Source: Candidatus Omnitrophota bacterium (GTDB lineage: Bacteria > Omnitrophota > Gorgyraeia > Gygaellales > Profunditerraquicolaceae). Taken from it: a stretch of 64,000 nucleotides of DNA. A program made the position numbers and the translations under genes. The stretch is from contig JAPLLX010000001.1 of assembly GCA_026387335.1 (NCBI GenBank), positions 170,620 to 234,619 on the forward strand, read 5' to 3'. The notes under the pieces were generated by a model. It saw only the letters and a list, made by a program, of their open reading frames with translations, searched no databases and was not told the origin of the DNA. Below, piece after piece: positions 3,024 to 58,522 of this stretch (its first letter is position 1; the number at the start of each line of letters is the position of its first letter).

Positions 3024-4076
3024 ATGAATAAGAAGGTAATTCCAATTATTGTCTTTTTAATCTGTGTATATGCTTTATTTCTTAGGTTAGGTAATATTTC
3101 TAACTTTCCATTTTGGGCTGATGAAATATACGGATTAAACCAAATGAAAGGCTCCTTTATTAACTTAGTAATGTCAGCACCAAATAATGAAATCGGTTCT
3201 TATTTGTTAGGAGACCACTATTTAATATATCCGTTTTTTAAGGTTTTTGGTTACAACAGAGTTGGATTAGCGTTTCCGCATATTCTTGCAACTATTTTAG
3301 GGTTTTTTATCCTGTATCTTATATGCAGATTGTATTTTAAAACCATATGGGGATATTTAGTAGCTTTTATTATAGTTTGTTTTAATCAAACTCTAATCTA
3401 CCATTCCATAGAAATCAGGCCATATGCCGTAATTCCTACGTTGGCATTAGGGGTTTTTTATTTTACCCACATTTTATTAAAAGAAGGGGCACCGATAGCT
3501 GCTTATAAAAAATGGCTGATTGGAATTTTCTTCATTATTACAATATTATTCCATGTTTATGGCATATTGATTGTTTCTCTTCCAATATTGTTTTTATTAT
3601 TTTCAAATGCAAAAATGAATAATTTTATTATAATTGCCCGGAAGTTATTTTGTTTTTTATTTATTATATTTTGCATAACTCTTCCTGTATGGTGTATTAG
3701 TGTTTTTGGCAAACATTGGATCCATCCAGAACTTCCAGTTTTTGAATATATACCAGATCCACTTTTAAACGTAGTGGGTTTCCTAAAAGGTATCTTTGGA
3801 AATTTAATAGGGAGTAAAGGATTATATTTTCTTTTAGCAGGAGTTTTATTCCCCTTTATTTTTTCTTTCCCGGAAAGGACAAAACAGATTAAGTTTTTAT
3901 TAATAATGGTAATTTTACCTATAGGGCTTATTCTTTCACAGGACATAAGAGAAAAATATTGGTTTTTGCAACGTCAGTTTATTTGGGTTATGCCTTATTT
4001 TGCTTTTTTCTTGGGCTGGGTGTGGGATTCTATGGCGCAGTTATTTATAAAAAATTTACCAACAAGAAGGGGGTAA
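3024..4076 (+). CDS. polytopic membrane protein, GT-C-like (ArnT/PMT-type) glycosyltransferase candidate
   Basis: Many hydrophobic helices. ATG 3024 is preceded by GGGGAGGGG. The extracytoplasmic-loop motif WADEIYG resembles GT-C proteins. Confidence 0.55.
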   Translation: MNKKVIPIIVFLICVYALFLRLGNISNFPFWADEIYGLNQMKGSFINLVMSAPNNEIGSYLLGDHYLIYPFFKVFGYNRVGLAFPHILATILGFFILYLICRLYFKTIWGYLVAFIIVCFNQTLIYHSIEIRPYAVIPTLALGVFYFTHILLKEGAPIAAYKKWLIGIFFIITILFHVYGILIVSLPILFLLFSNAKMNNFIIIARKLFCFLFIIFCITLPVWCISVFGKHWIHPELPVFEYIPDPLLNVVGFLKGIFGNLIGSKGLYFLLAGVLFPFIFSFPERTKQIKFLLIMVILPIGLILSQDIREKYWFLQRQFIWVMPYFAFFLGWVWDSMAQLFIKNLPTRRG

Positions 4077-4120: not shown

Positions 4121-4912
4121 ATGACGCAAAAGGAAGTGTTTGAAAAGATATATAGTGAAGAACGACTTGATCATTTCAGTTTTCATGATAGCAAGGATCC
4201 ACTTACCAGATACCTTCGCGATAGAAGATTGAATATTGCTTTAAGTGAGATTAAAAAAAATGCCAAGGATTTCAATTGCGATTGGAAAATTCTAACGGTC
4301 TGTGATGGCGTGGGAGGAGAAGGGACTTTTTTTGCGAATTTAGGGTTCAATTCAGTAACTGTTTCTGACATTTCTCAAAATGCTTTGAATTATTGCGTAA
4401 AACGCGACCCTCGATTAAAGACTTTATTATTAAATGCAGAAGATACGGAATTAACCGAAGCAACATTTGATTTAGTTGTAGTGCAAGATGGGCTTCACCA
4501 TTTAAAAAGGCCATTTTTAGGATATACGGAGATGCTCAGGATCGCAAGGAAAGCGGTCATTGTTATTGAACCGCATACTGGTGTTGTAGCTCGAATTTTT
4601 GGGACGGTTTGGGAGAAGCATTATGGTGAAGTGAATTACGTTTTTCGTTGGAACTACTTTATTTTGAGGCAAATCACAAATAGTTATTTGTTAAAATCGG
4701 ATTTTTCTATCAAATTTATTCGCCTATGGGATCATAACTTAGTTATGGGAAAAATAGCGAAAATTTTTGGAGGAGGGAAAGCGGGGTTATTTATTGTTAA
4801 GATCGTTTATTCTATTTTAAATTCTATTTTCTCAGGGTTTGGCAATATGATGATAGGGATTGTAATCAAAGAAAACAGTGTGATAAAAGAGATTATTAAT
4901 GAAAATAGATAA
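4121..4912 (+). CDS. class I SAM-dependent methyltransferase
   Basis: DGVGGEGTFFANLGF (motif I). ATG 4121 is preceded by AGGGAAGG. The upstream extension to 3959 overlaps the preceding gene and was rejected. Confidence 0.65.
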   Translation: MTQKEVFEKIYSEERLDHFSFHDSKDPLTRYLRDRRLNIALSEIKKNAKDFNCDWKILTVCDGVGGEGTFFANLGFNSVTVSDISQNALNYCVKRDPRLKTLLLNAEDTELTEATFDLVVVQDGLHHLKRPFLGYTEMLRIARKAVIVIEPHTGVVARIFGTVWEKHYGEVNYVFRWNYFILRQITNSYLLKSDFSIKFIRLWDHNLVMGKIAKIFGGGKAGLFIVKIVYSILNSIFSGFGNMMIGIVIKENSVIKEIINENR

Positions 4913-9919: not shown

Positions 9920-11113
9920 TTGAAAGATGAATTCTATAATTTCTTCAAGTTTATTAGCGAGTACGCGTTATATGGTTTGTTATTTTTTTTGTCAATTTCA
10001 AACGCTTTGGTTGAGACTTTTGTAGGTTTGGCAGTTTTTGGTTTTGTCGGACGCAAAGCAATAAGGCCGGACTTTAAGTATCTTAAGTCCTTACCGAATT
10101 TATTTCTTCTACTGTTTTTATTTTTTAGCGCGCTTTCTTTGTTTAATAGCGGAGCGTATCTTAAAATAAGCCTGAACGCTTTACTTGGAAAGTGGATGCA
10201 ATATCTCGGAATTTGTATCATTATCCAAGATGGCATATATGACCAAAAAATAATTAGGCGTGGGGTGTTTATCTTTTTGCTTGGTGCCGCCTTAGTAGTT
10301 CTTTCTGGGTTAAGCCAGTATTTTTTTAACATTGAATTCTTGCGAAATAGAAGTATCGCAGTTTTAAGCAACGGCCTGCATGCCGCGACATCTTCTTTTA
10401 GCCACTACAATGCTTTTGGCGGGTATTTGGTAGTTGTTCTATCTCTTGTCTCCGCTTTATTGTTAGCGAATAATTATTCTCGCCTTAAAACTAACAGTTT
10501 ATCAGCTTTAGCCATCTTATCAACCACGGCAATTATTTTGACTTTTTCTCGCGGTAGCTGGTTAGCTATGTTTATTTCGTTTATTTTTATGACTATTCTT
10601 TCTGAGAGAAATCTTAAGCGGTTAATTCCTGTTTTTCTTGTGATTATTATTTTATTTCTATTCCCCATCTTCCATGAAAGGTTATTTCTTACTTTTAAGG
10701 CCGGCGGTGATAGCGATAGGTTTAGGTATTGGCTGGTAGCATGGAAAATGATTAATGAACATCCATTTTTTGGAATGGGCTTAGGGACGTTTATGGCCAA
10801 TTTCCCAAAATTTCTACCGACTGCAAATATTTCATATGCGCACAATTGTTATTTGCAGATTTGGGCTGAAACAGGTATTTTTGCCTTATTTAGTTTTGGG
10901 GGTTTTATAGTTTCAGTTGTTTATTTTGGTATTAAAAGGTTTATTGATTCCAAGGATTTTGTATTGCTCGGATTATTGTCCGGAGTCGTGGGCTTCTTGT
11001 TACATAGTTTTTTTGAAACGAATTTATATTCTTTACGCCTTGCTATTTTATTCTGGGTTTGGGTTGGCTTGATTATTGTGAGAACGCGAAATGAACAACT
11101 GCCAAAAACATAG
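9920..11113 (+). CDS. O-antigen ligase/Wzy-family membrane protein
   Basis: Polytopic, with the Wzy_C-like motif TFSRGSWLAM. TTG start is adjacent to the upstream stop. Confidence 0.65.
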   Translation: MKDEFYNFFKFISEYALYGLLFFLSISNALVETFVGLAVFGFVGRKAIRPDFKYLKSLPNLFLLLFLFFSALSLFNSGAYLKISLNALLGKWMQYLGICIIIQDGIYDQKIIRRGVFIFLLGAALVVLSGLSQYFFNIEFLRNRSIAVLSNGLHAATSSFSHYNAFGGYLVVVLSLVSALLLANNYSRLKTNSLSALAILSTTAIILTFSRGSWLAMFISFIFMTILSERNLKRLIPVFLVIIILFLFPIFHERLFLTFKAGGDSDRFRYWLVAWKMINEHPFFGMGLGTFMANFPKFLPTANISYAHNCYLQIWAETGIFALFSFGGFIVSVVYFGIKRFIDSKDFVLLGLLSGVVGFLLHSFFETNLYSLRLAILFWVWVGLIIVRTRNEQLPKT

Positions 11114-40248: not shown

Positions 40249-42076
40249 AATAGTGGTGGGGCTAGCAGTCAGCGGCCCGTTTGATTATATTGTCCCTGAG
40301 GCAATAAAAGAAAAAATTAAAGTAGGCGTAAGGGTCTGGGTTAGCTTCGGAACCCGGCGCATAGTTGGTTATGTGGTGGGGTTAGCCAAAAAGAGCGGGG
40401 TTAAGAATTTAAAACCGGTATTAGAGCTGATTGATGAGCAGCCATTGTTAACTGAGAAGTTACTTTTACTGACTAAGTGGATAGCGGATTACTATTGTTG
40501 CTCTTGGGGCGAGGCAATTGAAACAGCGATACCTGAGGATTTAAGAAAGGGAAAGAAAACAGGGGACGCTTCGGGGGTTTTAAAAGTAGAAACTACCGAA
40601 GCGTCCCCTTATCTTTTAATTCATGATTTGGATGGCCAGGCGCGCTGGGATGTGTATATAGCTGAGATAAAAAAGGCCTTAGATAGTAAGTTATCAGCGA
40701 TACTCTTGTTACCGGATGTGCCTTATGTATTTAAGGCTCGCGATACAATTGAGAAGCGTTTGGGAATAAATGCCCGGATCTTATACCGTAAGCAGCCAAA
40801 AGAATTAGAAGAGTGGGTCAAACTTAAGGACAATGAACCCAAGGTCGTTGTGGGCACGCGCTCAGCAGTTTTTGCGCCGTTAAGTAATTTAGGCCTGATG
40901 ATTATAGACGATGAAGAGGATTCGGTCTATAAACAGGAACAGGCGCCGCATTATCACGCCCGGGAAGCAGGATTAACCCGCTCTAAATTAGAGGGTTTTA
41001 AGCTGATTTTAGGGAGCAGTGCGCCTTCGTTAGAAAGTTTTTATTTAAGCAAGAAACAAAAAGCTAAATATACGCTTATTCCCAGGAGAAAAGAGTTTCC
41101 CGAAGTTAAAATTATTGATACGCGGCGTTTACCTTTTCAAGCGGGAAAGAAAAAAGCTATTTTGTCCCGCTTGCTGGAAGATTCTATCTATTCTGTTTTA
41201 AATGAAAAAGGTAAGACACTTTTATTTCTTAACCGCCGGGGTTTTGCTACAAGCGCAACCTGTCATAATTGCGGAAAAGTCCTTAAATGCCCGCGCTGTA
41301 GTATAAATTTAGTTTATCATTTTAAAGAAGATTTGTTAGGTTGCCACTATTGTAATTTTAAGATGCAACCTCCAAAGATATGTCCGGAATGTAATTCCGG
41401 TTATATTAAATTTTCCGGAGCAGGGACAGAGAAGATAGAGAGCGAGCTCGCCCGTATATTTCCGCAGGCCAGGATCAATATATTGGATGAGAATAATTTA
41501 AATCCGCAGAATTCCGATATAGCAATAGCCACGAGCAGTGTTATCAGACAGGCTGGGTTAGAGTTTGACCTTATAGGCGTTTTAGGGATAGATAACGCCT
41601 TAAACCGCGTGGACTTTCGTTCTACGGAGAAAGTCTCCGGTTTATTATCCGGGCTAATCAGCCTGACGCGCAAGAAATTTCTGATTCAGACCGGCTTGCC
41701 TGCGCACCATTGTTTTCAAGCGCTGCTAAAAAAAGACGCCAATTTCTTCTATGAAGAAGAGCTAAAGCAAAGAAGGCAGCTGGGATTTCCGCCATATAAA
41801 CATATGGTTTTAGTAAAATTGCGGGCTAAAATTGAGGATAAGGTCAAAGATGCCGCAGAGTCATTATGCGCTAACTTAAGAGAAATAAACAAAAGTAAAG
41901 ATATTGAAATAGTTGCGGTTAATCCGTCTAACCCGGCTAAGCTAAGAGGGAATTATCATTGGCAGGTGTTGCTACGCTGTAGCAAGGTAATTGCGGCCAG
42001 CGCGTTCTTAAGAAATAGTTTAAAAAATTTCCGGCATTCGGGTATAATAGTAACCGTAGATGTTGATCCATTATAA
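40235..42076 (+). CDS. priA: primosomal protein N' (replication restart helicase PriA)
   Basis: Helicase motifs and a Cys4 zinc-finger cluster (CHNCGKVLKCPRC ... CHYCNF ... CPEC). Confidence 0.85.
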   Translation: MLYAKIVVGLAVSGPFDYIVPEAIKEKIKVGVRVWVSFGTRRIVGYVVGLAKKSGVKNLKPVLELIDEQPLLTEKLLLLTKWIADYYCCSWGEAIETAIPEDLRKGKKTGDASGVLKVETTEASPYLLIHDLDGQARWDVYIAEIKKALDSKLSAILLLPDVPYVFKARDTIEKRLGINARILYRKQPKELEEWVKLKDNEPKVVVGTRSAVFAPLSNLGLMIIDDEEDSVYKQEQAPHYHAREAGLTRSKLEGFKLILGSSAPSLESFYLSKKQKAKYTLIPRRKEFPEVKIIDTRRLPFQAGKKKAILSRLLEDSIYSVLNEKGKTLLFLNRRGFATSATCHNCGKVLKCPRCSINLVYHFKEDLLGCHYCNFKMQPPKICPECNSGYIKFSGAGTEKIESELARIFPQARINILDENNLNPQNSDIAIATSSVIRQAGLEFDLIGVLGIDNALNRVDFRSTEKVSGLLSGLISLTRKKFLIQTGLPAHHCFQALLKKDANFFYEEELKQRRQLGFPPYKHMVLVKLRAKIEDKVKDAAESLCANLREINKSKDIEIVAVNPSNPAKLRGNYHWQVLLRCSKVIAASAFLRNSLKNFRHSGIIVTVDVDPL

Positions 42077-45179: not shown

Positions 45180-46232
<1,053 letters not shown>

Positions 46233-46233
46233 T

Positions 46234-46299
46234 AAATAGGGACAGCGACCGTTTTTTCTAATACTATATACACGAAAAAAACGGTCGCTGTCCCTATTT
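46234..46299. repeat. hairpin repeat element copy A: 24-bp perfect terminal inverted repeats AAATAGGGACAGCGACCGTTTTTT / AAAAAACGGTCGCTGTCCCTATTT with a 17-nt loop
   Basis: Read directly. It lies downstream of gap and upstream of the 746-aa gene. A T-rich tract on both sides suggests a bidirectional terminator. Confidence 0.8.
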
Positions 46300-46305
46300 A
46301 TTTCT

Positions 46306-48546
46306 ATGGCGCTTCTATCTACTATTTTTATTATCGGTTTAAGCGGCTTAATCGCTCAGATTATTATCCTGCGCGAGCTTCTGGTCAATTTTTCCGGTAA
46401 TGAGTTAACCGTAGGCATTATTCTGGCTAACTGGGTTATTCTGGAAGCCGCCGGTGTTTTTTTCCTCGGAAAAGCTATAGAGAGGATTAAGAATAAATTA
46501 AGCGTTTTTATAGCTTTAAATATACTCTTCGCGTTGATCCTGCCGTTTACTATTTACTTTGCGCGCACGTTTAAGGCGTTTACAGGCCTACCTTTTATAG
46601 AAGCGGTTTCTTTACCCGTTATATTCTTCTCTTCGTTGGCGATAATCTTTCCAGCGGCATTTTTACATGGCGCGCTCTTTAGCTGCGCTTGTAAGGAACA
46701 TTCCTTAATAACCAACAACTCTGAACGCTCAATAAGGATGGTTTATGCCTGGGAGGCCCTTGGGACAATATTCGGCGGGATAATTCTGGTATTTTTACTC
46801 ATACCGCGCCTGACTTCATTTCAAATAGTGCTTATTATTTCCTTCCTAAATATTATTTTGTCCATTTTTCTTACCCGGGCTAAGAAAAGATATTTTTATC
46901 TGTGCGTTATTACGTTTTTATGCGTTTTATTTTCCGCTAAAGCCGCGGGTTATTTGCAAAGAGCCTCAATTGATAAACAATGGCAGGGCCAGTTTATCCT
47001 GGATTATCGGAATTCTAATTACGCTAATATTACCGTAACCAAAAAACTTAACCAGTACACCTTTTTCTATAACGGAGTGCCGGCGATTACTACTCCTTTC
47101 CCGGATAAGCAATTTGTCAGCGACTTCGCCAACTTACCGTTATTATTTCATGACTCGCCGCAGGATATCCTGATTGTAGGTTCCGGTATCGGAGGCTTAA
47201 TCGCAGAGTCCCTGAAACACCCCCTCAAAAGCCTGGATTATGTTGAAATTGACCCCTTGATTATCAAGTTACTTAAAGAATACCCTACGTCTTTAAGCGA
47301 AGCTGAGCTCGCTGACAGCAGAGTAAATATTATTAATACCGACCCCCGGCTGTTCTTAATGACCAGCAAAAAATCTTACGATGTGATTTTGATAGGGCTA
47401 TCGGCTCAAGCGGATTTATCCAGTAACCGGTTTTTTACGGAAGAGTTTTTTAAGAGGGCTAAGATGAGACTAAATCCCAAAGGTATAATCGCTTTGTGGA
47501 TGCCAGGTTCATTGACCTACCTGAGCAGTGAGTTAAAAGATCTGAATAACTGCGTATGGAATAGTTTAAGGCTTTCTTTTAAATATACGCGCGTCATTCC
47601 TGGAGATTACAACATATTTATCGCTTCTGAGGCAGACGGGATAATGCTGGTTAATCCTACTTTATTATCCGAGAGGCTAATGAAGCGCGGTGTCGCGCAG
47701 GGGATACTCATTCCGGATTATCTTCAAGAGCGCTTAAGCCAGAGGTGGCTGGATTGGTTTAATCAGGAACTTAGGTTAGCCACAAAGGAGAGTAATCAGG
47801 ACCTGCGGCCCGCGGCAGTATATGCAACCTTAAAGATTATAAATAAGAAGTTCTCTCCCGGATTTAGCCGGGTATTTAGTTATCTTGGCTATGTTAATTT
47901 AAAATTATTATTCCTTATAATTTTTCTGATGAGCTTAGGGGTAATGGTTGTCTCTAAAATTAAACGTGATCCAAAAATCCCGGTTGCCTACGCGATTTTT
48001 ACAACCGGATTTTTCGGAATGCTGGCTAACCTGCTTTTATTATTTGCTTACCAGGTTTCTTACGGGTGCTTGTATCAGATGATAAGTATATTAACCGCGG
48101 TATTTATCTTTGGAGCCGCAATAGGGGTTATTTTACTTTCTCCGGCGTTTAGCCGGCTAAAGAAACCGGGATCAATTTTAATTATAATGGAAGCCTTAAT
48201 AATTAGTTTTATATTTATACTGGGGTCAGTTATTACCAGAGGCAACGTTATTTTAAACAATTCAGCTGCAATTTTCTATTGCCTATTGTTTATTGCGGGC
48301 TTACTTATGGGCCTGGAATTTCCTTTAGCCGCCAAGATATACCTAAAAGATAATAGGGATAACGCAGGCGCTGTTTCAGGGTTGCTTTATGCCAGCGATC
48401 TTATTGGCGGGTGGTTAGCCGGAATATTCGGGGGAGTCGTATTTTTGCCCGTGTTAGGCTTTTTTAATACCTGCCTGCTTATGGTTATGTTGAAGCTGAG
48501 CAGCCTTCTTGTGTTAATAAATAGGGACAGCGACCGTTTTTTCTAA
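46306..48546 (+). CDS. membrane protein fused to a spermidine-synthase-like (aminopropyl/methyltransferase-fold) domain
   Basis: N-terminal and C-terminal TM bundles flank a SpeE-like domain (ILIVGSGIGGL ... VEIDPLIIKL). Confidence 0.65.
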   Translation: MALLSTIFIIGLSGLIAQIIILRELLVNFSGNELTVGIILANWVILEAAGVFFLGKAIERIKNKLSVFIALNILFALILPFTIYFARTFKAFTGLPFIEAVSLPVIFFSSLAIIFPAAFLHGALFSCACKEHSLITNNSERSIRMVYAWEALGTIFGGIILVFLLIPRLTSFQIVLIISFLNIILSIFLTRAKKRYFYLCVITFLCVLFSAKAAGYLQRASIDKQWQGQFILDYRNSNYANITVTKKLNQYTFFYNGVPAITTPFPDKQFVSDFANLPLLFHDSPQDILIVGSGIGGLIAESLKHPLKSLDYVEIDPLIIKLLKEYPTSLSEAELADSRVNIINTDPRLFLMTSKKSYDVILIGLSAQADLSSNRFFTEEFFKRAKMRLNPKGIIALWMPGSLTYLSSELKDLNNCVWNSLRLSFKYTRVIPGDYNIFIASEADGIMLVNPTLLSERLMKRGVAQGILIPDYLQERLSQRWLDWFNQELRLATKESNQDLRPAAVYATLKIINKKFSPGFSRVFSYLGYVNLKLLFLIIFLMSLGVMVVSKIKRDPKIPVAYAIFTTGFFGMLANLLLLFAYQVSYGCLYQMISILTAVFIFGAAIGVILLSPAFSRLKKPGSILIIMEALIISFIFILGSVITRGNVILNNSAAIFYCLLFIAGLLMGLEFPLAAKIYLKDNRDNAGAVSGLLYASDLIGGWLAGIFGGVVFLPVLGFFNTCLLMVMLKLSSLLVLINRDSDRFF

Positions 48547-48583
48547 TACTATATACGCGGAAAAATGGTCGCTGTCCCTATTT
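48519..48583. repeat. hairpin repeat element copy B (about 95% identical to copy A, loop included)
   Basis: The left arm is identical. The right arm has 2 mismatches. The element encodes the last 9 codons and stop of the 746-aa gene. Confidence 0.8.
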
Positions 48584-48624
48584 AATCTATTGTTTTTGGG
48601 TATTGCGGTGGTATAATAAATTTT

Positions 48625-49233
48625 GTGACTGATTTAGATTTCGTCCAGAAATGCGTCAAAGGGGACAGCCAATCCTGGGATGAATTCTTAAAACGTTATT
48701 CCCGCCTGATATATAAGTATATCCACAGCGTATTAAACTCTAAGAACATTCTTGCCTCTAACCCTGACCATATAGACGATATATTTCAGGGTTTTTTCTC
48801 TTCTTTGATCCAAGACGACTATAAAAAACTAAAAAGCTTTAGAGGTATAAATGGCTGTAGCCTGGCCAGCTGGTTAAGGCTGCTTACTATAAATTTCACC
48901 CTGGATTATCTGCGTAGGGTTAAACCGGCATTTTCTCTGGAAGCTGAGAATGACGAAGGTTTTAGCCTTAAGGATACACTAGCTGATGGTTCAATTTCCG
49001 TGCCTGAGCTGCTTGCCCAGGAAGAAATGTTAAAGAGCCTGGAGGATTGCCTGGACGGTTTAAGCCTGCAAAGCAGGTTTCTTATAGAGTTAAATATTAA
49101 TCAAGGCGTAAAGCTGGAGGCCTTAAAAGATTTATTTAAACTTTCCCGCGGGGCCATAGATATGCAGAAGAAGAGGATTATTGATAAACTAAGAGAGTGT
49201 TTTAGGAGTAAAGGTTTTAAGTTAGATTTTTAA
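48625..49233 (+). CDS. ECF-type RNA polymerase sigma factor (sigma-70 family)
   Basis: Region 2 and region 4 architecture, 202 aa. GTG start lies 8 nt downstream of TGGTATAAT (extended -10 at 48609-48617). Confidence 0.7.
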   Translation: MTDLDFVQKCVKGDSQSWDEFLKRYSRLIYKYIHSVLNSKNILASNPDHIDDIFQGFFSSLIQDDYKKLKSFRGINGCSLASWLRLLTINFTLDYLRRVKPAFSLEAENDEGFSLKDTLADGSISVPELLAQEEMLKSLEDCLDGLSLQSRFLIELNINQGVKLEALKDLFKLSRGAIDMQKKRIIDKLRECFRSKGFKLDF

Positions 49234-49272
49234 GGCGCTTGCGTCTATTATACTAAGGAGGGGACTATCAAT

Positions 49273-49977
49273 ATGCCGGATAAGTTAGAGGTTTTAATTA
49301 AAAAAGTTTACAACAGATGGAAGAGGCGCTCTAGGGTTAACGATGCTCATCCTGATGAAGAGGCCATGGCTTGTTTTTTTGATGGTTGCTTAAGCTATGA
49401 AGAAAGCGAGCGGATAAAAGCCCATTTAGCTGCTTGTGATGATTGCGCTCATCTTTTTGCTCTTAGCTTAAACGCTGAAAGTTCCGCTGAATTAAAAGAG
49501 GTGCCTGAAGAGCTGCTAAACAGGGTGCTGGAGTTATTGAAATCAAATGATAAGCCGTCGATCCTGGATATTGTTTTACGGCTCAAAGAGAATATGCTTG
49601 AGATAATCAATGCCAGCGGAGATATTCTTTTAGGCCAGGAGTTAATTCCCGTACCGCTATTACGCAGCCGTAAAATCCGGGATTTTAAGGAGGAAGTCAC
49701 TATATTCAAGGATTTTAAGAATATTCGATTAGAGGTGCGGATAGAAAATAAGGATGGAAAATTCTTTAACTTAATGACCAGGGCTATTTTTAAGCCTGGC
49801 GCGCTACCCTTTAAAGGCTTAAGGGTTACTCTCTTTAAGGATGGTTTGGAATTAGAATCCTACCTTAGCGATTCGGGTTCGGTTAATTTTGAGCATGTTG
49901 CCTTGGGTAAATATGAGTTAGAGCTGAGCAACGATAGCGGTAAGTTCGCTTCAGTGGTTTTAGATATTAAGGCCTAA
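49273..49977 (+). CDS. soluble zinc-binding (ZAS-type, HxxxCxxC) anti-sigma factor candidate
   Basis: HLAACDDC motif. No TM segment. RBS AAGGAGG. Confidence 0.55.
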   Translation: MPDKLEVLIKKVYNRWKRRSRVNDAHPDEEAMACFFDGCLSYEESERIKAHLAACDDCAHLFALSLNAESSAELKEVPEELLNRVLELLKSNDKPSILDIVLRLKENMLEIINASGDILLGQELIPVPLLRSRKIRDFKEEVTIFKDFKNIRLEVRIENKDGKFFNLMTRAIFKPGALPFKGLRVTLFKDGLELESYLSDSGSVNFEHVALGKYELELSNDSGKFASVVLDIKA

Positions 49978-49985
49978 ATAAAAGA

Positions 49986-52205
49986 ATGCCAGAAGAAAAG
50001 ACCCTTATTTTGGAGATTAGCCGCCAGGTTGACCTGCTGAAGATGAGCCTTTTTGAGGCCAACGACTCTCCGGCAACCCTAAAGCAATATAGCCAGCACA
50101 AAGTCGATCTTAGCCAGATTGATCGGCTCTGCGCCGAGGTCACTTCAGTATTAAATAAGGTTGTCTTACAGGATAGCGCTTTAATTAGAAGCTTACAGAA
50201 AACAGGACAGGCCCTCTGGGATCATCTTTTAAGCCGTTCGGTTAAAGAGAGGTTAAAATCATCCCTCTCTGCCAACTTAGCGCTGACCATTGATGAAGAG
50301 CTGATTAATATTCCCTGGGAACTGCTTTATGATGGAGATAATTTTCTCTGCCTGAAATTTAACTTAGGAAGGCTGGTTAGGACGAAAAGCCAGGCTAGCC
50401 GGGTGCAATACCGCTCGGCTACGCATATTTTTAAGATGTTAATTTTGGCCAATCCGACCAATGATTTAAAATGCGCTTATCAGGAAGGCCTAAGCATTAA
50501 AAACCAGTTTGACCGTAAGCGTTCAAACATACACGTTGATTTTAAATCCACAAATATAGATAAGTTATACCTAAAGAAGAACCTTTGCGACTATGACATT
50601 ATACATTTTGCCGGGCATGGCGAGTATGACCAGTATAACCAGAAAAATAGCGGATGGGTCTTAAGCGACGGGAAATTTAATATACAGGATATTTTAAGCA
50701 TGGGGCAGGCTGTTTCTTTGCCGGCGTTGGTTTTTTCTAATGCCTGTAATTCGGCGCAAGGTAACGCCAGCGGTATAATTGAGGCGGATTATCAGAAGAG
50801 ATATTATTCCTTTGCTTCGGCCTTCCTTTTTTCAGGAGTCAGGCATTACATCGGCTCAATACGCAAGATTGATGATTTCGCCAGCCTGGCTTTCGCCAAA
50901 GAATTTTATCACCATTTAATCTTCGGGAAATCTGTCGGTGAAAGTTTGCGTTTAAGCAGGATCAAGTTAGTCCGGGATTATGGGCTCATCTCTTTACATT
51001 GGGCGAATTACCTGCTTTATGGAGACCCGGCTTTTTTTCTCTTTAAGCCCAAAGACAAAGCGTTTAAGAGCAGGGATAAAATAAGGGTAAGGCTAAACCG
51101 GAAATGGCTGGCCGGGTTTTTAATTTTAGCCGCCGGCATAGGGTTAGGTCTATGTCTCTTTATGTTTTTACCTACGCTTAATCCAAATGCCTACCGTTTA
51201 TTCTTGAAGTCCAGGGATTTATTTAGCAAAGGCGATAACCAGCAAGTTATCCAGCTGGCTGACCGGATTATTAAGAAAGACCCGGACTTCCGGGATATTT
51301 ACCGGTTGCTTGGCGATACTTACCTTAGGCTGGGGAATAAGGAGAGGGCCTTAAAATATTATTTTGACTACGCGCTTTTAGCGGAGAAGAAGCGGGATTT
51401 TAAGTGTTTAGCCGCAGGCTATATTGAAATTGGCTGGCTTTACCAACTGCAAGGTGAATACCTTAAGGCAGCTGATTTTTATAATAAGGCCCTGGAATTG
51501 GCGCGCAAGAACAATGATAAATTAAATGAAGCCGTAGCCATGCGTAAGCTGGCTGTATGGCATATAGATAAGGATGAAAACGATTTGGCCTTAAGTCTTT
51601 TAACCAAAAGCGCCGAGATTAACCGCGAAAGGCAGTATTCTTATGAGCATCGCTATAACCTGGCTTGCGATTATTTTGATATCGGATTGGTTTTTTCCAA
51701 TAAGGAGGATTTTAAAGCCGCGGATGAGTTTTACCGCAAAAGCCGGGTGATTTTTGAGAGACTTAAAATTAAGAATGGTTTAAGCGATTATTATTTTAAT
51801 CTTGGGGAATTGTGTTTATTTGAAAAACAGTATCAAAAGGCCAAAGATTATTACTTAGCCGGGCTAAGGATAGATTTGAGCCAGGGGAATAAATTGAACC
51901 TGCCTTCGGATTATAACATGATCGGCGAGCTGTATCTTGAGATGGATATGCTACTGGAAGCTAAACTTGCCTTGGAAGAGTCGCTAAATGCCGCAAAAGA
52001 GATCCAGGCGCAGCCGGAAGTGGCCGCGGCGTATCATAATTTAGGTTTGTTGTATAAGAAACTGGGAAAAAAGAATAAGGCCAAGGAATTCTTGCGGCTG
52101 GCGCAGGAAATTTACAGTATTATTGACCCCTTGGCTTATAAAGAGGTAAAAAATGAGATTTTAGGCCTGGATGGGGCAAACCTGCCGGACTTGACAAAGC
52201 CTTAA
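49986..52205 (+). CDS. CHAT-domain (caspase-like) protease fused via one TM helix to C-terminal TPR repeats
   Basis: His in HFAGHGEYD and Cys in FSNACNSAQG form the catalytic dyad. TM helix FLILAAGIGLGLCLFMFL. Several TPR repeats follow. Confidence 0.75.
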   Translation: MPEEKTLILEISRQVDLLKMSLFEANDSPATLKQYSQHKVDLSQIDRLCAEVTSVLNKVVLQDSALIRSLQKTGQALWDHLLSRSVKERLKSSLSANLALTIDEELINIPWELLYDGDNFLCLKFNLGRLVRTKSQASRVQYRSATHIFKMLILANPTNDLKCAYQEGLSIKNQFDRKRSNIHVDFKSTNIDKLYLKKNLCDYDIIHFAGHGEYDQYNQKNSGWVLSDGKFNIQDILSMGQAVSLPALVFSNACNSAQGNASGIIEADYQKRYYSFASAFLFSGVRHYIGSIRKIDDFASLAFAKEFYHHLIFGKSVGESLRLSRIKLVRDYGLISLHWANYLLYGDPAFFLFKPKDKAFKSRDKIRVRLNRKWLAGFLILAAGIGLGLCLFMFLPTLNPNAYRLFLKSRDLFSKGDNQQVIQLADRIIKKDPDFRDIYRLLGDTYLRLGNKERALKYYFDYALLAEKKRDFKCLAAGYIEIGWLYQLQGEYLKAADFYNKALELARKNNDKLNEAVAMRKLAVWHIDKDENDLALSLLTKSAEINRERQYSYEHRYNLACDYFDIGLVFSNKEDFKAADEFYRKSRVIFERLKIKNGLSDYYFNLGELCLFEKQYQKAKDYYLAGLRIDLSQGNKLNLPSDYNMIGELYLEMDMLLEAKLALEESLNAAKEIQAQPEVAAAYHNLGLLYKKLGKKNKAKEFLRLAQEIYSIIDPLAYKEVKNEILGLDGANLPDLTKP

Positions 52206-52220
52206 AAAATATGTTATACT
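52191..52220 (+). promoter_or_regulatory. sigma-70-like promoter TTGACA-18-TATACT upstream of the riboswitch
   Basis: Read directly. The -35 lies within the last codons of the CHAT gene. Confidence 0.45.
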
Positions 52221-52257
52221 TTTTTAGTTGATATTTGACAATTTAAACCTGACCTAA

Positions 52258-52345
52258 TGAAAAGGCTAACCAGCAGCAATGCTGGGGCGCAAAACTTCCG
52301 GACCCGCCAAAGGCGGGCTAGCGGGGTTGCCAAAAGGAGCTAACC
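52258..52345 (+). ncRNA. c-di-GMP-I (GEMM) riboswitch aptamer candidate
   Basis: GGCUAACC, a 4-bp hairpin with a GCAA tetraloop, GGGGCGCAAAAC, the P3 hairpin CCCGCC-AAAG-GCGGG, and CUAGCGGGGUUGCC. This closely parallels the Vc2 pattern GGCAAACC-[GNRA hairpin]-GGGACGCAAAGCC ... GGUAGCGGGGUUACC. Confidence 0.6.
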
Positions 52346-52372
52346 CTAAAATTAATCCTTTTAGGGTTTTTT
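52342..52372 (+). terminator. intrinsic terminator (riboswitch expression platform)
   Basis: AACCCTAAAA-ttaatcc-TTTTAGGGTT followed by TTTTTG. It overlaps the 3' strand of the aptamer. Confidence 0.6.
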
Positions 52373-52445
52373 GTTGCAGAGGGCAACACACCGAACCATC
52401 CGATAGGTTTGGGTGACCCTGGAGGAGGGCGCAAAGGAGGCTAAG

Positions 52446-52553
52446 ATGAGGCGAATGCATAGAAAGTTAATGCGCAAACCAGCAAGAAGGCACCATAAGA
52501 GGCAGCCAAGCTTTATCCAGGCTATAAGGCTATATTTAGGCATGCCAGCGTAA
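52446..52553 (+). CDS. 35-aa highly basic small protein (MRRMHRKLMRKPARRHHKRQPSFIQAIRLYLGMPA)
   Basis: Consensus SD AAAGGAGG sits 5 nt upstream of the ATG. The ORF lies in the GC-rich island downstream of the riboswitch and is not in the ORF track because it is under 60 aa. Confidence 0.4.
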   Translation: MRRMHRKLMRKPARRHHKRQPSFIQAIRLYLGMPA

Positions 52554-52556
52554 AAT

Positions 52557-52609
52557 AAATAGGGACAGCGACCGTTTTTCTATGGGAAAAACGGTCGCTG
52601 TCCCTATTT
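52557..52609. repeat. hairpin repeat element copy C (same 23-bp arms, 7-nt loop)
   Basis: Read directly. It lies immediately after the small ORF stop. Confidence 0.8.
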
Positions 52610-52618
52610 AAAGTGGCC

Positions 52619-58447: not shown

Positions 58448-58522
58448 AGGGACGGTTCTCAACTCAAAGCTAAAGTGTCCCCTAACAGGGGACACTTTGA
58501 GATTGGCTTGAGAACCGTCCCT
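58448..58522. repeat. nested palindromic element (15-bp outer stem AGGGACGGTTCTCAA/TTGAGAACCGTCCCT enclosing a 12-bp inner hairpin AAAGTGTCCCCT/AGGGGACACTTT); shares the AATAGGGAC start with the other hairpin elements
   Basis: Read directly. Intergenic between the DJ-1 gene and panD. Confidence 0.7.

Follow-up and report, generated by a model that had tools for sequence, protein, structure and literature searches.

Three near-identical hairpins occur in the stretch of Omnitrophota DNA analysed here (64,000 nt, hereafter the window), each at the 3' end of a gene, and they raise the question of what kind of element they are and why their sequences are so alike. All three share the core GGGACAGCGACC and have near-perfect arms of 24-27 nt; each was delimited with a repeat finder and annotated without a strand. 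Copy A (46231-46302; also read by eye and folded) has fully complementary 27-nt arms (46231-46257 and 46276-46302; 100%) around an 18-nt spacer, with the cores at 46239-46250 and 46283-46294. It lies between a GAPDH gene, whose stop codon (46230-46232) overlaps the foot of the hairpin, and a fused MFS/spermidine-synthase gene starting at 46306. Copy B (48518-48584; likewise read and folded) has 24-nt arms (48518-48541 and 48561-48584) that are 96% complementary, a 19-nt spacer and nearly the same loop as copy A; one C>T change in its right arm gives a G.U pair in the RNA of the + strand. Its left arm provides the coding tail INRDSDRFF* (48518-48546, + strand), that is, the last 9 codons and the stop of ORF 46306-48546, and homologues of this ORF outside the window's lineage end in unrelated C-terminal tails. 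Copy C, a 59-nt segment (52554-52612) also defined by comparison with a 94%-identical relative, has fully complementary 25-nt arms (52556-52580 and 52586-52610; 100%) and a 5-nt loop, and lies immediately behind the TAA stop that ends a small conserved ORF (52446-52553).

An initial annotation had described these three hairpins, their position at gene ends and the contribution of copy B to the ORF, all of which is borne out here; its figure of about 95% identity between copies A and B has to be lowered to 92% (67/73 positions, loop included). The family is far above chance expectation. The 13-mer GGGACAGCGACCG, allowing up to 2 mismatches, occurs six times in the window and every time in a hairpin arm, where 0.26 occurrences would be expected, and none of 100 shuffled sequences reached six. 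Each copy folds as RNA from either strand with -35 to -45 kcal/mol (z about -9 to -11 against shuffles).

The motif is not unique to the window, a point on which the initial annotation had made its reading depend. Scanning public MAGs for the pattern GGGACAGCGACC-N7-37-GGTCGCTGTCCC, we found at least 115 8-kb stretches, mostly from Omnitrophota, which carry at least 126 of the two-armed elements; up to about 19 of the listed stretches come from one MAG, and the invariance of the core is partly due to ascertainment, as the scan required exact arms. The element is thus not a local oddity but is dispersed over many unrelated housekeeping loci. Viral contigs searched for the element gave no match. 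The hairpins matched no Rfam family at gathering thresholds, and with E-value thresholds only generic miRNA-precursor hairpin models were hit, below threshold. A full-text literature search with the core sequence found no paper, nor did a search for papers linking Omnitrophota with repetitive extragenic elements.

Among the listed elements, the consensus of the arms reaches 5-6 nt beyond the core on both sides. The repeat unit is about 24 nt long, (W)AAATA-GGGACAGCGACC-ATTTT, and the doublet consists of two inverted units and a variable spacer. Spacers are unrelated between most listed copies, and identical spacers occur within single genomes (four copies in MAG nzgw297, three in CAZQGT). Pairing of the cores is nearly universal: the 260 listed core occurrences comprise 126 pairs and only about 8 unpaired cores, and none of them shows the reverse arrangement. 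The arms begin with AAATA-GGGAC, with position -1 being A in 86% and G in 13% of the listed arms, and none of these arms carries a GTAG (or CGTC) REP tag at the repeat end. Taken singly, an arm has the potential for no more than a weak A/T palindrome, a stem of 5 bp (-6..-2 with +12..+16) that encloses 13 nt. The pairs (-2,+12), (-3,+13) and (-5,+15) show an excess of Watson-Crick combinations with some double changes, which is weak evidence because the sequences are phylogenetically related.

Reading of a stretch with four hairpins revealed what may move them. Related genomes encode a Y1/HUH transposase of 223-235 aa that is flanked by single arms or whole hairpins of the element (loci L044, L122, L123/124 and L125-134). 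The gene at L044 (3617-4324) has whole hairpins on both sides, and its product matches Pfam Y1_Tnp (E 7e-11) and contains the HUH motif (HVH) and YIERNPVR. In the homologues P0124, P0126 and P0138 the gene is preceded by a left arm, and its stop is followed by either a right arm or a complete hairpin; the number of tandem arms at P0138 varies between 10 samples. A tblastn search for the linked family in the 64-kb window found no member. A metagenomic scan seeded with the protein only yielded 80 transposase loci, 56 of them with enough flanking sequence; many transposase contigs are only 1-2 kb long. In 54 of the 56 loci, GGGAC followed by 7 nt stands about 55 nt (50 to 60) upstream of the start, and the reverse complement follows about 15-20 nt past the stop in most loci (54/56 have both). 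The 7-nt part varies with the transposase clade, GGGACAGACACC being the arm from another clade: transposases with the same core are on average 60% identical and those with different cores 47%, and the nearest-neighbour transposase shares the core in 28/53 cases.

The protein itself is consistent with a REP-type enzyme. Pfam Y1_Tnp (PF01797) matches 29/29 aligned members, and H60, H62 and Y119 are invariant in the alignment. The sole NCBIfam match is NF047646, 'REP-associated tyrosine transposase', with 56-63 bits, below its cut-off of 80. An AlphaFold model (mean pLDDT 85.5) found 4ER8_A as its best PDB match (E 6e-8), ahead of the IS608, ISDra2 and IS200 TnpA structures. It took this fold search to reach 4ER8, as the sequence profile of the transposase retrieved only a weak IS200-like match (2EC2) from the PDB. 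A conserved C-terminal extension of about 85 residues follows, with three predicted helices (166-174, 179-191 and 198-208).

Because the arms flank a Y1 transposase and the 7-nt part tracks its clade, we read the hairpins as REPIN-like doublets, and consider it highly probable that they are non-autonomous doublets of the terminal repeats of a RAYT system of the TIRYT/TIRtron type. Of the "REP/MITE-like" label in the initial annotation, the REP half stands, with a dispersed motif whose arms flank a REP-type Y1 transposase, and the half that implies a DDE transposase does not, as target-site duplications (3 bp or longer) were not seen. The kind of element is already known (REP/REPIN, "TIRtron"); here it is found in Omnitrophota, a little-studied phylum, and in at least one other.

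TIRYT genes have terminal inverted repeats (TIRs) that share GGGGWSAS and lie at similar distances on both flanks (Di Nocera et al., 2013, PMC3733652), and in some TIR families the repeats come as dimers (PMC3733652; PMC6006769). The system described here resembles them in its RAYT-like Y1/HUH gene between inverted repeats at a roughly constant distance, in the motif, which AGGGACAG fits at 7/8 positions and the variants GGGGACAG and GGGGACAC at 8/8, in dispersed repeat families that occur in some genomes and often as dimers, and in a C-terminal extension that makes the protein longer than IS200 TnpA. It probably belongs to subclass 2.1 TnpA-REP of Quentin et al. (2018, PMC6006769), which is marked by a C-terminal extension resembling a helix-turn-helix; the C-terminal 85 residues or so have no detectable HTH Pfam domain here (no member matched Bac_DnaA_C, HTH_23 or HTH_28 at E<=1). 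Further differences are that the hosts are Omnitrophota and other uncultivated lineages absent from those papers (the term Omnitrophota does not occur in PMC6006769), that the family here occurs in many copies, nearly all of them tight doublets, in contrast to the few genomes with TIR families in the 2013 survey (PMC3733652), and that the co-variation between the 7-nt part and the transposase clade was not described in the 2013 paper.

The REPIN-RAYT systems of Pseudomonas and Enterobacteria (Bertels and Rainey, 2011, PMC3116915; Messing et al., 2012, PMC3479197, PDB 4ER8) likewise have hairpins made of two inverted short repeats, tens of extragenic copies, copies with identical spacers within a genome, and repeats around the Y1 transposase gene; the best structural match to our transposase is the E. 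coli RAYT, solved bound to a REP hairpin (4ER8). Our elements differ from them in lacking the GTAG tag, in the score below the cut-off of the NCBIfam RAYT model, and in a single repeat that is no GC-rich palindrome but whose GC-rich core would form the loop of a weak A/T stem. With IS200/IS605 the elements share the Y1/HUH domain (PF01797), the lack of target duplication and the dependence on DNA hairpins. The ends of IS200/IS605 are distinct subterminal hairpins, whereas here the two ends repeat each other in inverted orientation and the abundant form is gene-free.

By homology with E. coli TnpA-REP and IS200/IS605 TnpA, a transposase encoded elsewhere in the genome would act on the repeat in trans. 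It would bind the repeat on single-stranded DNA, probably folded into the hairpin, and cut and rejoin it through a 5'-phosphotyrosine intermediate, so that doublets may be copied or moved without target duplication. To our knowledge, no TIRYT has been tested biochemically. Copies would then persist where they are harmless, which in compact genomes may mean a few bases past a stop codon. In the transcript, the stem of 24-27 bp followed by UAUUU probably also forms a 3' hairpin, and we conjecture that it may act as a terminator or mRNA stabilizer.

That last step leads to the best-surviving alternative, namely that the hairpins are only intrinsic (bidirectional) terminators or stabilizers of mRNA 3' ends that are kept by selection and resemble each other because they were duplicated or homogenized by gene conversion, a transposase playing no part. 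Their placement, which also speaks for the doublet reading, agrees with this: the listed elements follow stop codons and hardly ever separate divergent genes, neighbouring genes being in tandem (83), convergent (14) or divergent (3) orientation, and the core lies a median of 7 nt from the stop codon. In 20/119 listed cases the TAG of ATAG-GG itself supplies the stop. The outer arm, TAAATAG, holds stops in two frames and often the host gene's own stop, and at L086 two convergent genes both end in ..KN* inside the arms. The stems are stable and lie between A tracts on the 5' side and T tracts on the 3' side, a terminator scan picked copy C on the - strand (only copy C passed), and the junction between the GAPDH and spermidine-synthase genes in relatives at 65% and 62% identity holds an unrelated, canonical-looking hairpin with a T tract.

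A terminator needs no fixed sequence, however, and the 12-nt core recurs across phyla in genomes of 36-67% GC, with arms at fixed distances around a Y1 transposase with which they co-vary. Where the listed elements lie between tandem genes, the gap to the following start codon has a median of 47 nt and is often only 8-25 nt, too short to hold a promoter if transcription were efficiently terminated there, and in the window the element is present at just 3 gene ends out of about 70. Of the features of a terminator, the hairpins have a stem and a U tract that is interrupted (UAUUU), and the loops of A and B measure 18-19 nt. The orientation of the loop shows no bias relative to gene direction and hence no sign of a strand-specific role of the loop sequence, and a comparison of G.U with A.C mismatches in the sense strand (12 versus 5), made to probe for selection on the RNA, gave no significant difference. 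A terminator role does not account for the sequence identity of the copies. We therefore regard it as an unlikely full explanation; the bidirectional termination proposed initially is plausible as a secondary role, for which the hairpins are candidates.

The doublets also appear to turn over between relatives. In the 94%-identical relative (L116), which is otherwise collinear, copy C is absent and the empty site reads GCGTAA-GTGGCC. The site of copy A is occupied there by a hairpin whose loop differs and which contains two G.T positions, and the loops of A and B, alike in the window, are unlike in this relative. Sequence comparison thus points to recent turnover, although the difference at copy C could be a deletion via a 2-nt AA microhomology instead of an insertion. 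In the leu operon, hairpins occupy different junctions among genomes whose proteins are about 80-90% identical.

Movement as MITEs, by a DDE transposase that recognizes the 24-nt inverted repeats in double-stranded DNA, would explain the conserved arms, the variable length of the interior and the TA found immediately outside GGGAC...GTCCC in the listed elements. We consider it very improbable: among the listed elements flanking direct repeats are at chance level, with two of 3 bp observed against 3.4 expected and none of 4 bp or more; clustering of the neighbouring ORFs in search of an enriched transposase, DDE enzymes included, gave only housekeeping genes; and the gene that is associated with the arms encodes a Y1/HUH enzyme.

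Uptake sequences (Neisseria DUS, Haemophilus USS) are mostly single and frequent inside genes, and the paired ones double as terminators. Our elements resemble the latter in their fixed sequence of about 12 nt and in inverted pairs past genes, and differ in the near absence of single cores, with none inside genes in the window, and in the linked dedicated transposase. Least probable of all are therefore the two remaining suggestions of the initial annotation, that the core is a DNA uptake signal or that copies A and B, as direct repeats 92% identical around one gene, are recombination sites of an acquired or excisable cassette; against the latter, the fused gene has 916 homologues, is conserved across Omnitrophota and still follows the GAPDH gene in the relatives of 94, 65 and 62% identity, the latter two of which have no copy of the element, and in the 94% relative A and B have unlike loops. 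From these comparisons, the fused gene is a conserved syntenic Omnitrophota gene and no cassette.

Returning to the REPIN-like doublets, the same repeat type is found in hosts with a GC content of 0.32-0.68, including genomes of 50-67% GC. Record labels also name Nitrospirota, Elusimicrobiota and others as hosts. The proteins encoded by stretches that bear the label 'Planctomycetales' (CAZQGT) are 87-95% identical to proteins from Omnitrophota stretches; because labels are unreliable for some MAGs, the cross-phylum claim was checked separately, and a Planctomycetota host was verified independently for one GC-rich genome. The very different host GC and the Planctomycetota host argue against strictly vertical descent. 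REPIN-RAYT systems, in contrast, are described as mostly vertically inherited (10.1101/2022.05.22.493013), and one repeat type across such different GC contents and phyla sets our elements apart from them. We tentatively propose, as a possibility less likely than not, that transposase and repeats spread horizontally as a unit, one 12-nt core being present in many species of Omnitrophota and in Planctomycetota at 36-67% GC, that GGGAC plus the 7-nt part forms a natural recognition code, and that the elements are perhaps recruited as 3'-end signals of the host.

The identification as doublets explains a conspicuous repeat in the genomes of a large uncultivated phylum. It also calls for caution in annotation, as the hairpins give host genes stop codons and short C-terminal tails, break assemblies and can be mistaken for terminators or recombination sites. 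The more than 50 pairs of transposase and repeat with co-varying cores represent a data set on DNA recognition by REP-type Y1 enzymes, and the 7-nt code, if true, could reveal how Y1 transposases read DNA. The presence of the repeat across hosts of very different composition bears on the view of such elements as strictly vertical, "domesticated" passengers, and horizontal spread as a unit, if true, would contrast with the vertically inherited REPIN-RAYT systems described so far.

The three hairpins that the initial annotation picked out are a further case of an already known, REP-like kind of element. A repeat finder confirmed them in place, with perfect 27-nt arms at 46231-46257/46276-46302 (copy A), 24-nt arms with one mismatch at 48518-48541/48561-48584 (copy B) and perfect 25-nt arms at 52556-52580/52586-52610 (copy C). 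The 13-mer GGGACAGCGACCG occurs six times in the window against 0.26 expected, always within these arms. Copies A and B show 67/73 identity, arms and loop counted, and RNA folding gives -35 to -45 kcal/mol per copy on both strands. The foot of copy A is overlapped by the stop of the GAPDH gene (45180-46232), and 3 nt past this copy starts a fused MFS/spermidine-synthase gene (46306-48546, + strand; Pfam Spermine_synth), the final nine codons of which, INRDSDRFF*, are encoded by the left arm of copy B, much as had been proposed. The TAA that ends a small, highly basic ORF (MRRMHRKLMRKPARRHHKRQPSFIQAIRLYLGMPA, 52446-52553) immediately precedes copy C; upstream of this ORF lies a c-di-GMP-I riboswitch (52254-52334, 64.7 bits), with a terminator-like hairpin (52342-52368) between the two. 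The ORF and its ribosome-binding site are both kept in the 94% relative L116, where the riboswitch-to-ORF interval holds ~150 additional bases with a tandem repeat. Along the entire window (1-64000) GC skew is positive and all real-looking ORFs of at least 100 aa lie on the + strand, an extreme gene-strand bias over 64 kb.

The suspicion of a REP-like element was borne out by its dispersal and by a Y1 transposase flanked by its arms. Outside the window, a search for GGGACAGCGACC-N7-37-GGTCGCTGTCCC, with each species represented by a single genome, returned at least 126 elements in at least 115 8-kb stretches; since exact arms were demanded, part of the core's constancy among them follows from the search pattern itself. 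Among the matches listed, the half-element consensus is (W)AAATA-GGGACAGCGACC-ATTTT(T/C), with no conservation found beyond ~6 nt either side of the core, and most copies have unrelated spacers (0-36 nt past the inner stem), but some copies of one genome share an identical one. Outer and inner A/T stems carry compensating changes, e.g. ATAG...CTAT, GTTTTT...AAAAAC and ATTATC...GATAAT. The cores of the listed matches stand in the order GGGAC...GTCCC without exception and are nearly always paired, so that the suggested likeness to uptake signals does not hold. The element was not found in viral contigs, and no Rfam family matches the hairpins. Mini-palindromes, GGGACAGTCCC (5 seen against ~0.55 expected) and GGGACAGCTGTCCC, also occur near genes (L007 2861, 3970; L072 93, 111; L085 4215; L052 60, 1478); they resemble doublets of which just a few outermost bases remain, perhaps as scars of deletion.

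The transposase was encountered in contig stretch L044, which holds four hairpins within 2.6 kb. Between the first and second of these lies a 235-aa ORF matching Pfam Y1_Tnp (IS200-like), which carries the HUH motif (HVH) and YIERNPVRAKLV and the final codons of which extend into the second hairpin. A Phd/YefM-ParE toxin-antitoxin pair (L044 4390-4930) is situated between two hairpins directly 3' of the transposase gene, followed by rplM-rpsI. The protein has 3841 homologues; the best 120 of these are 217-242 aa long with PF01797, and those with a named source are annotated as Omnitrophota or Omnitrophica transposases. Three homologues were examined in their contig context. For P0124, one left arm stands ~120 nt upstream, and the stop is followed after 4 nt by a whole hairpin. 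P0126 has an arm on each side, the left one upstream and the right one ~25 nt past the stop. P0138 occurs in ten groundwater metagenome samples, where its gene is directly preceded by 1-5 tandem left arms and its stop directly followed by 1-2 right arms (L125-L134, about 3750-4000 and 4676-4730). How many tandem arms surround P0138 varies between samples, and this population polymorphism suggests ongoing cutting and joining at the arms. Two contigs of the three-homologue set are the source contigs of hairpin stretches L042 and L079.

An independent test started from the protein alone: metagenome contigs were scanned with 29 aligned homologues. It yielded 80 loci (39-67% identity), of which 56 had enough flank; 54 of the 56 carry GGGAC plus 7 nt some 55 nt ahead of the start, and the reverse complement of this motif ~15-20 nt past the end of the match. 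The 7-nt variants include AGCGACC (10 loci), AGACACC (9), AGCGCCC (6), ACCATAC (5), AGTCACC (3) and GCAACCC (3), besides others. Repeat and transposase co-vary: mean transposase identity is 60% where the core is shared versus 47% where cores differ, and the core is shared with the nearest protein neighbour in 28 of 53 cases. The other core types likewise form tight doublets beside their own gene, and each type is found in contigs of widely different GC.

The sole NCBIfam hit of the transposase is 'REP-associated tyrosine transposase' (RAYT), at 56-63 bits and thus below the cut-off of 80. Its AlphaFold model is confident (mean pLDDT 85.5), and the top solved-structure match is 4ER8_A (E 6e-8, TM 0.72 on target), the E. 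coli REP-associated transposase with bound REP hairpin, which outranks the IS608, ISDra2 and IS200 transposases. The last ~85 residues of the protein form a conserved, helical extension, and none of the HTH models matched it. REPINs, two inverted REPs exploiting a RAYT (PMC3337134), are the functional analogue of the hairpins described here. The GTAG tag that marks classical REPs is missing, and we therefore place the element in the TIRYT/TIRtron branch of RAYTs and not among classical REPs, TIRtron being the name of the unit and TIRYT that of the enzyme (Di Nocera et al., PMC3733652). Many terminal inverted repeats (TIRs) flanking RAYT-like genes share GGGGWSAS, and some are moderately abundant families, often dimers (Di Nocera et al., PMC3733652); this description is matched by the arm (AGGGACAG or GGGGACAG), by the fixed distances and by the dimers. 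Most TIRYTs have been assigned to TnpA-REP subclass 2.1 (Quentin et al. 2018, PMC6006769).

Turnover of the element is seen among relatives. L116/L117 (94% identical protein) are collinear with the window over 22 kb. Site A is occupied there by a hairpin that differs in its loop (CTACAGG) and has two G.T positions, site B by one with a different loop again. At site C there is no hairpin, and GCGTAA joins GTGGCC where the window holds 59 extra bases (52554-52612). Since the relative's loops are unlike, the near-identical loops of A and B are recent and window-specific, their source being conversion or replacement. Copy C is either a recent insertion in the window or was lost in the relative via 2-nt microhomology. 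The idea that the gene between A and B is a mobile cassette does not hold, as more distant relatives (65% and 62%) keep the order from GAPDH to spermidine synthase with a different hairpin at site A (core GGGGACGGTTCT) and none found at site B. In the leu operon of three related Omnitrophota the element occupies differing junctions.

Two further kinds of hairpin were observed. A family with core GGGACGGTTCT forms a nested 36-nt-arm hairpin between two genes of the window (58448-58522), fills the junction of GAPDH and spermidine synthase in the 65% and 62% relatives, and is repeated as doublets in several Omnitrophota stretches; its sites include L119 about 9950-9995, L120 about 9935-10000, L115, L033, L056, L104 and L012, and no transposase link was found among the loci examined. 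A 20-nt-arm hairpin (AGGGGACGCTTCGG...) at 40561-40609 lies in frame within priA, where residues 109-125 form a variable linker. This hairpin is missing from the 94% relative, whose priA is called as two ORFs, and is degenerate in the 62% relative; it may have arisen by intragenic insertion of a related repeat.

Among the matches listed, 83 elements lie between tandem, 14 between convergent and 3 between divergent genes. The neighbours in these matches are ordinary housekeeping genes (leuBCD, fabF, smc, atpA), with the upstream stop codon a median of 7 nt from the core and the downstream start a median of 47 nt away. The stop is the TAG of ATAG preceding GG in 20 of 119 listed cases, and many others use the TAA of TAAATA; in L086, both convergent genes terminate (..KN*) within the two arms. 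The listed matches gave neither target duplication beside elements nor a bias of loop orientation relative to gene direction. This position at stop codons is best explained by copies persisting where an insertion does no harm, given how short the spacers of these genomes are; stops in two frames are supplied by the outer arm. A preference for certain insertion targets may also lie behind it. The SMC genes of several Omnitrophota contain an intein with a LAGLIDADG domain (L015 5465-8000; L123 5931-8672).

By analogy with E. coli TnpA-REP and the IS200/IS605 enzymes (PMC3479197), and from the fold match, we posit that the transposase would act on single-stranded DNA, recognise the folded repeat, and cut and rejoin it through a phosphotyrosine intermediate. 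The recognised form could be either the doublet folded into its long hairpin or one arm folded by itself, with a weak A/T stem and the GC core looped; some covariation exists within single arms. The element may plausibly serve in a secondary role as a terminator or mRNA 3' hairpin, since the junction of GAPDH and spermidine synthase holds an unrelated hairpin in the distant relatives. In many tandem pairs among the matches listed the next gene begins 8-25 nt past the element, so that read-through must be common.

All named homologues of the spermidine-synthase fusion belong to Omnitrophota, the phylum of the window, which is also the label of most element-bearing stretches among the matches listed. 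Record labels alone are unsafe, because the proteins encoded on some Planctomycetales-labelled stretches share 87-95% identity with proteins from Omnitrophota stretches. Other element-bearing stretches have 50-67% GC. Near relatives of the adenylosuccinate lyase adjacent to the element in L086 (64% GC) are only Planctomycetes-labelled, and at least two phyla therefore carry the identical element, A/T tracts included. It is also borne by two contigs (1.0 and 1.9 Mb) of one Nitrospirota-labelled MAG (MFD03726.bin.2.99). These findings go beyond the literature in that Omnitrophota and other lineages serve as hosts, tight doublets are abundant, the 7-nt code is specific to the transposase clade, and a single repeat type is shared by hosts from different phyla.
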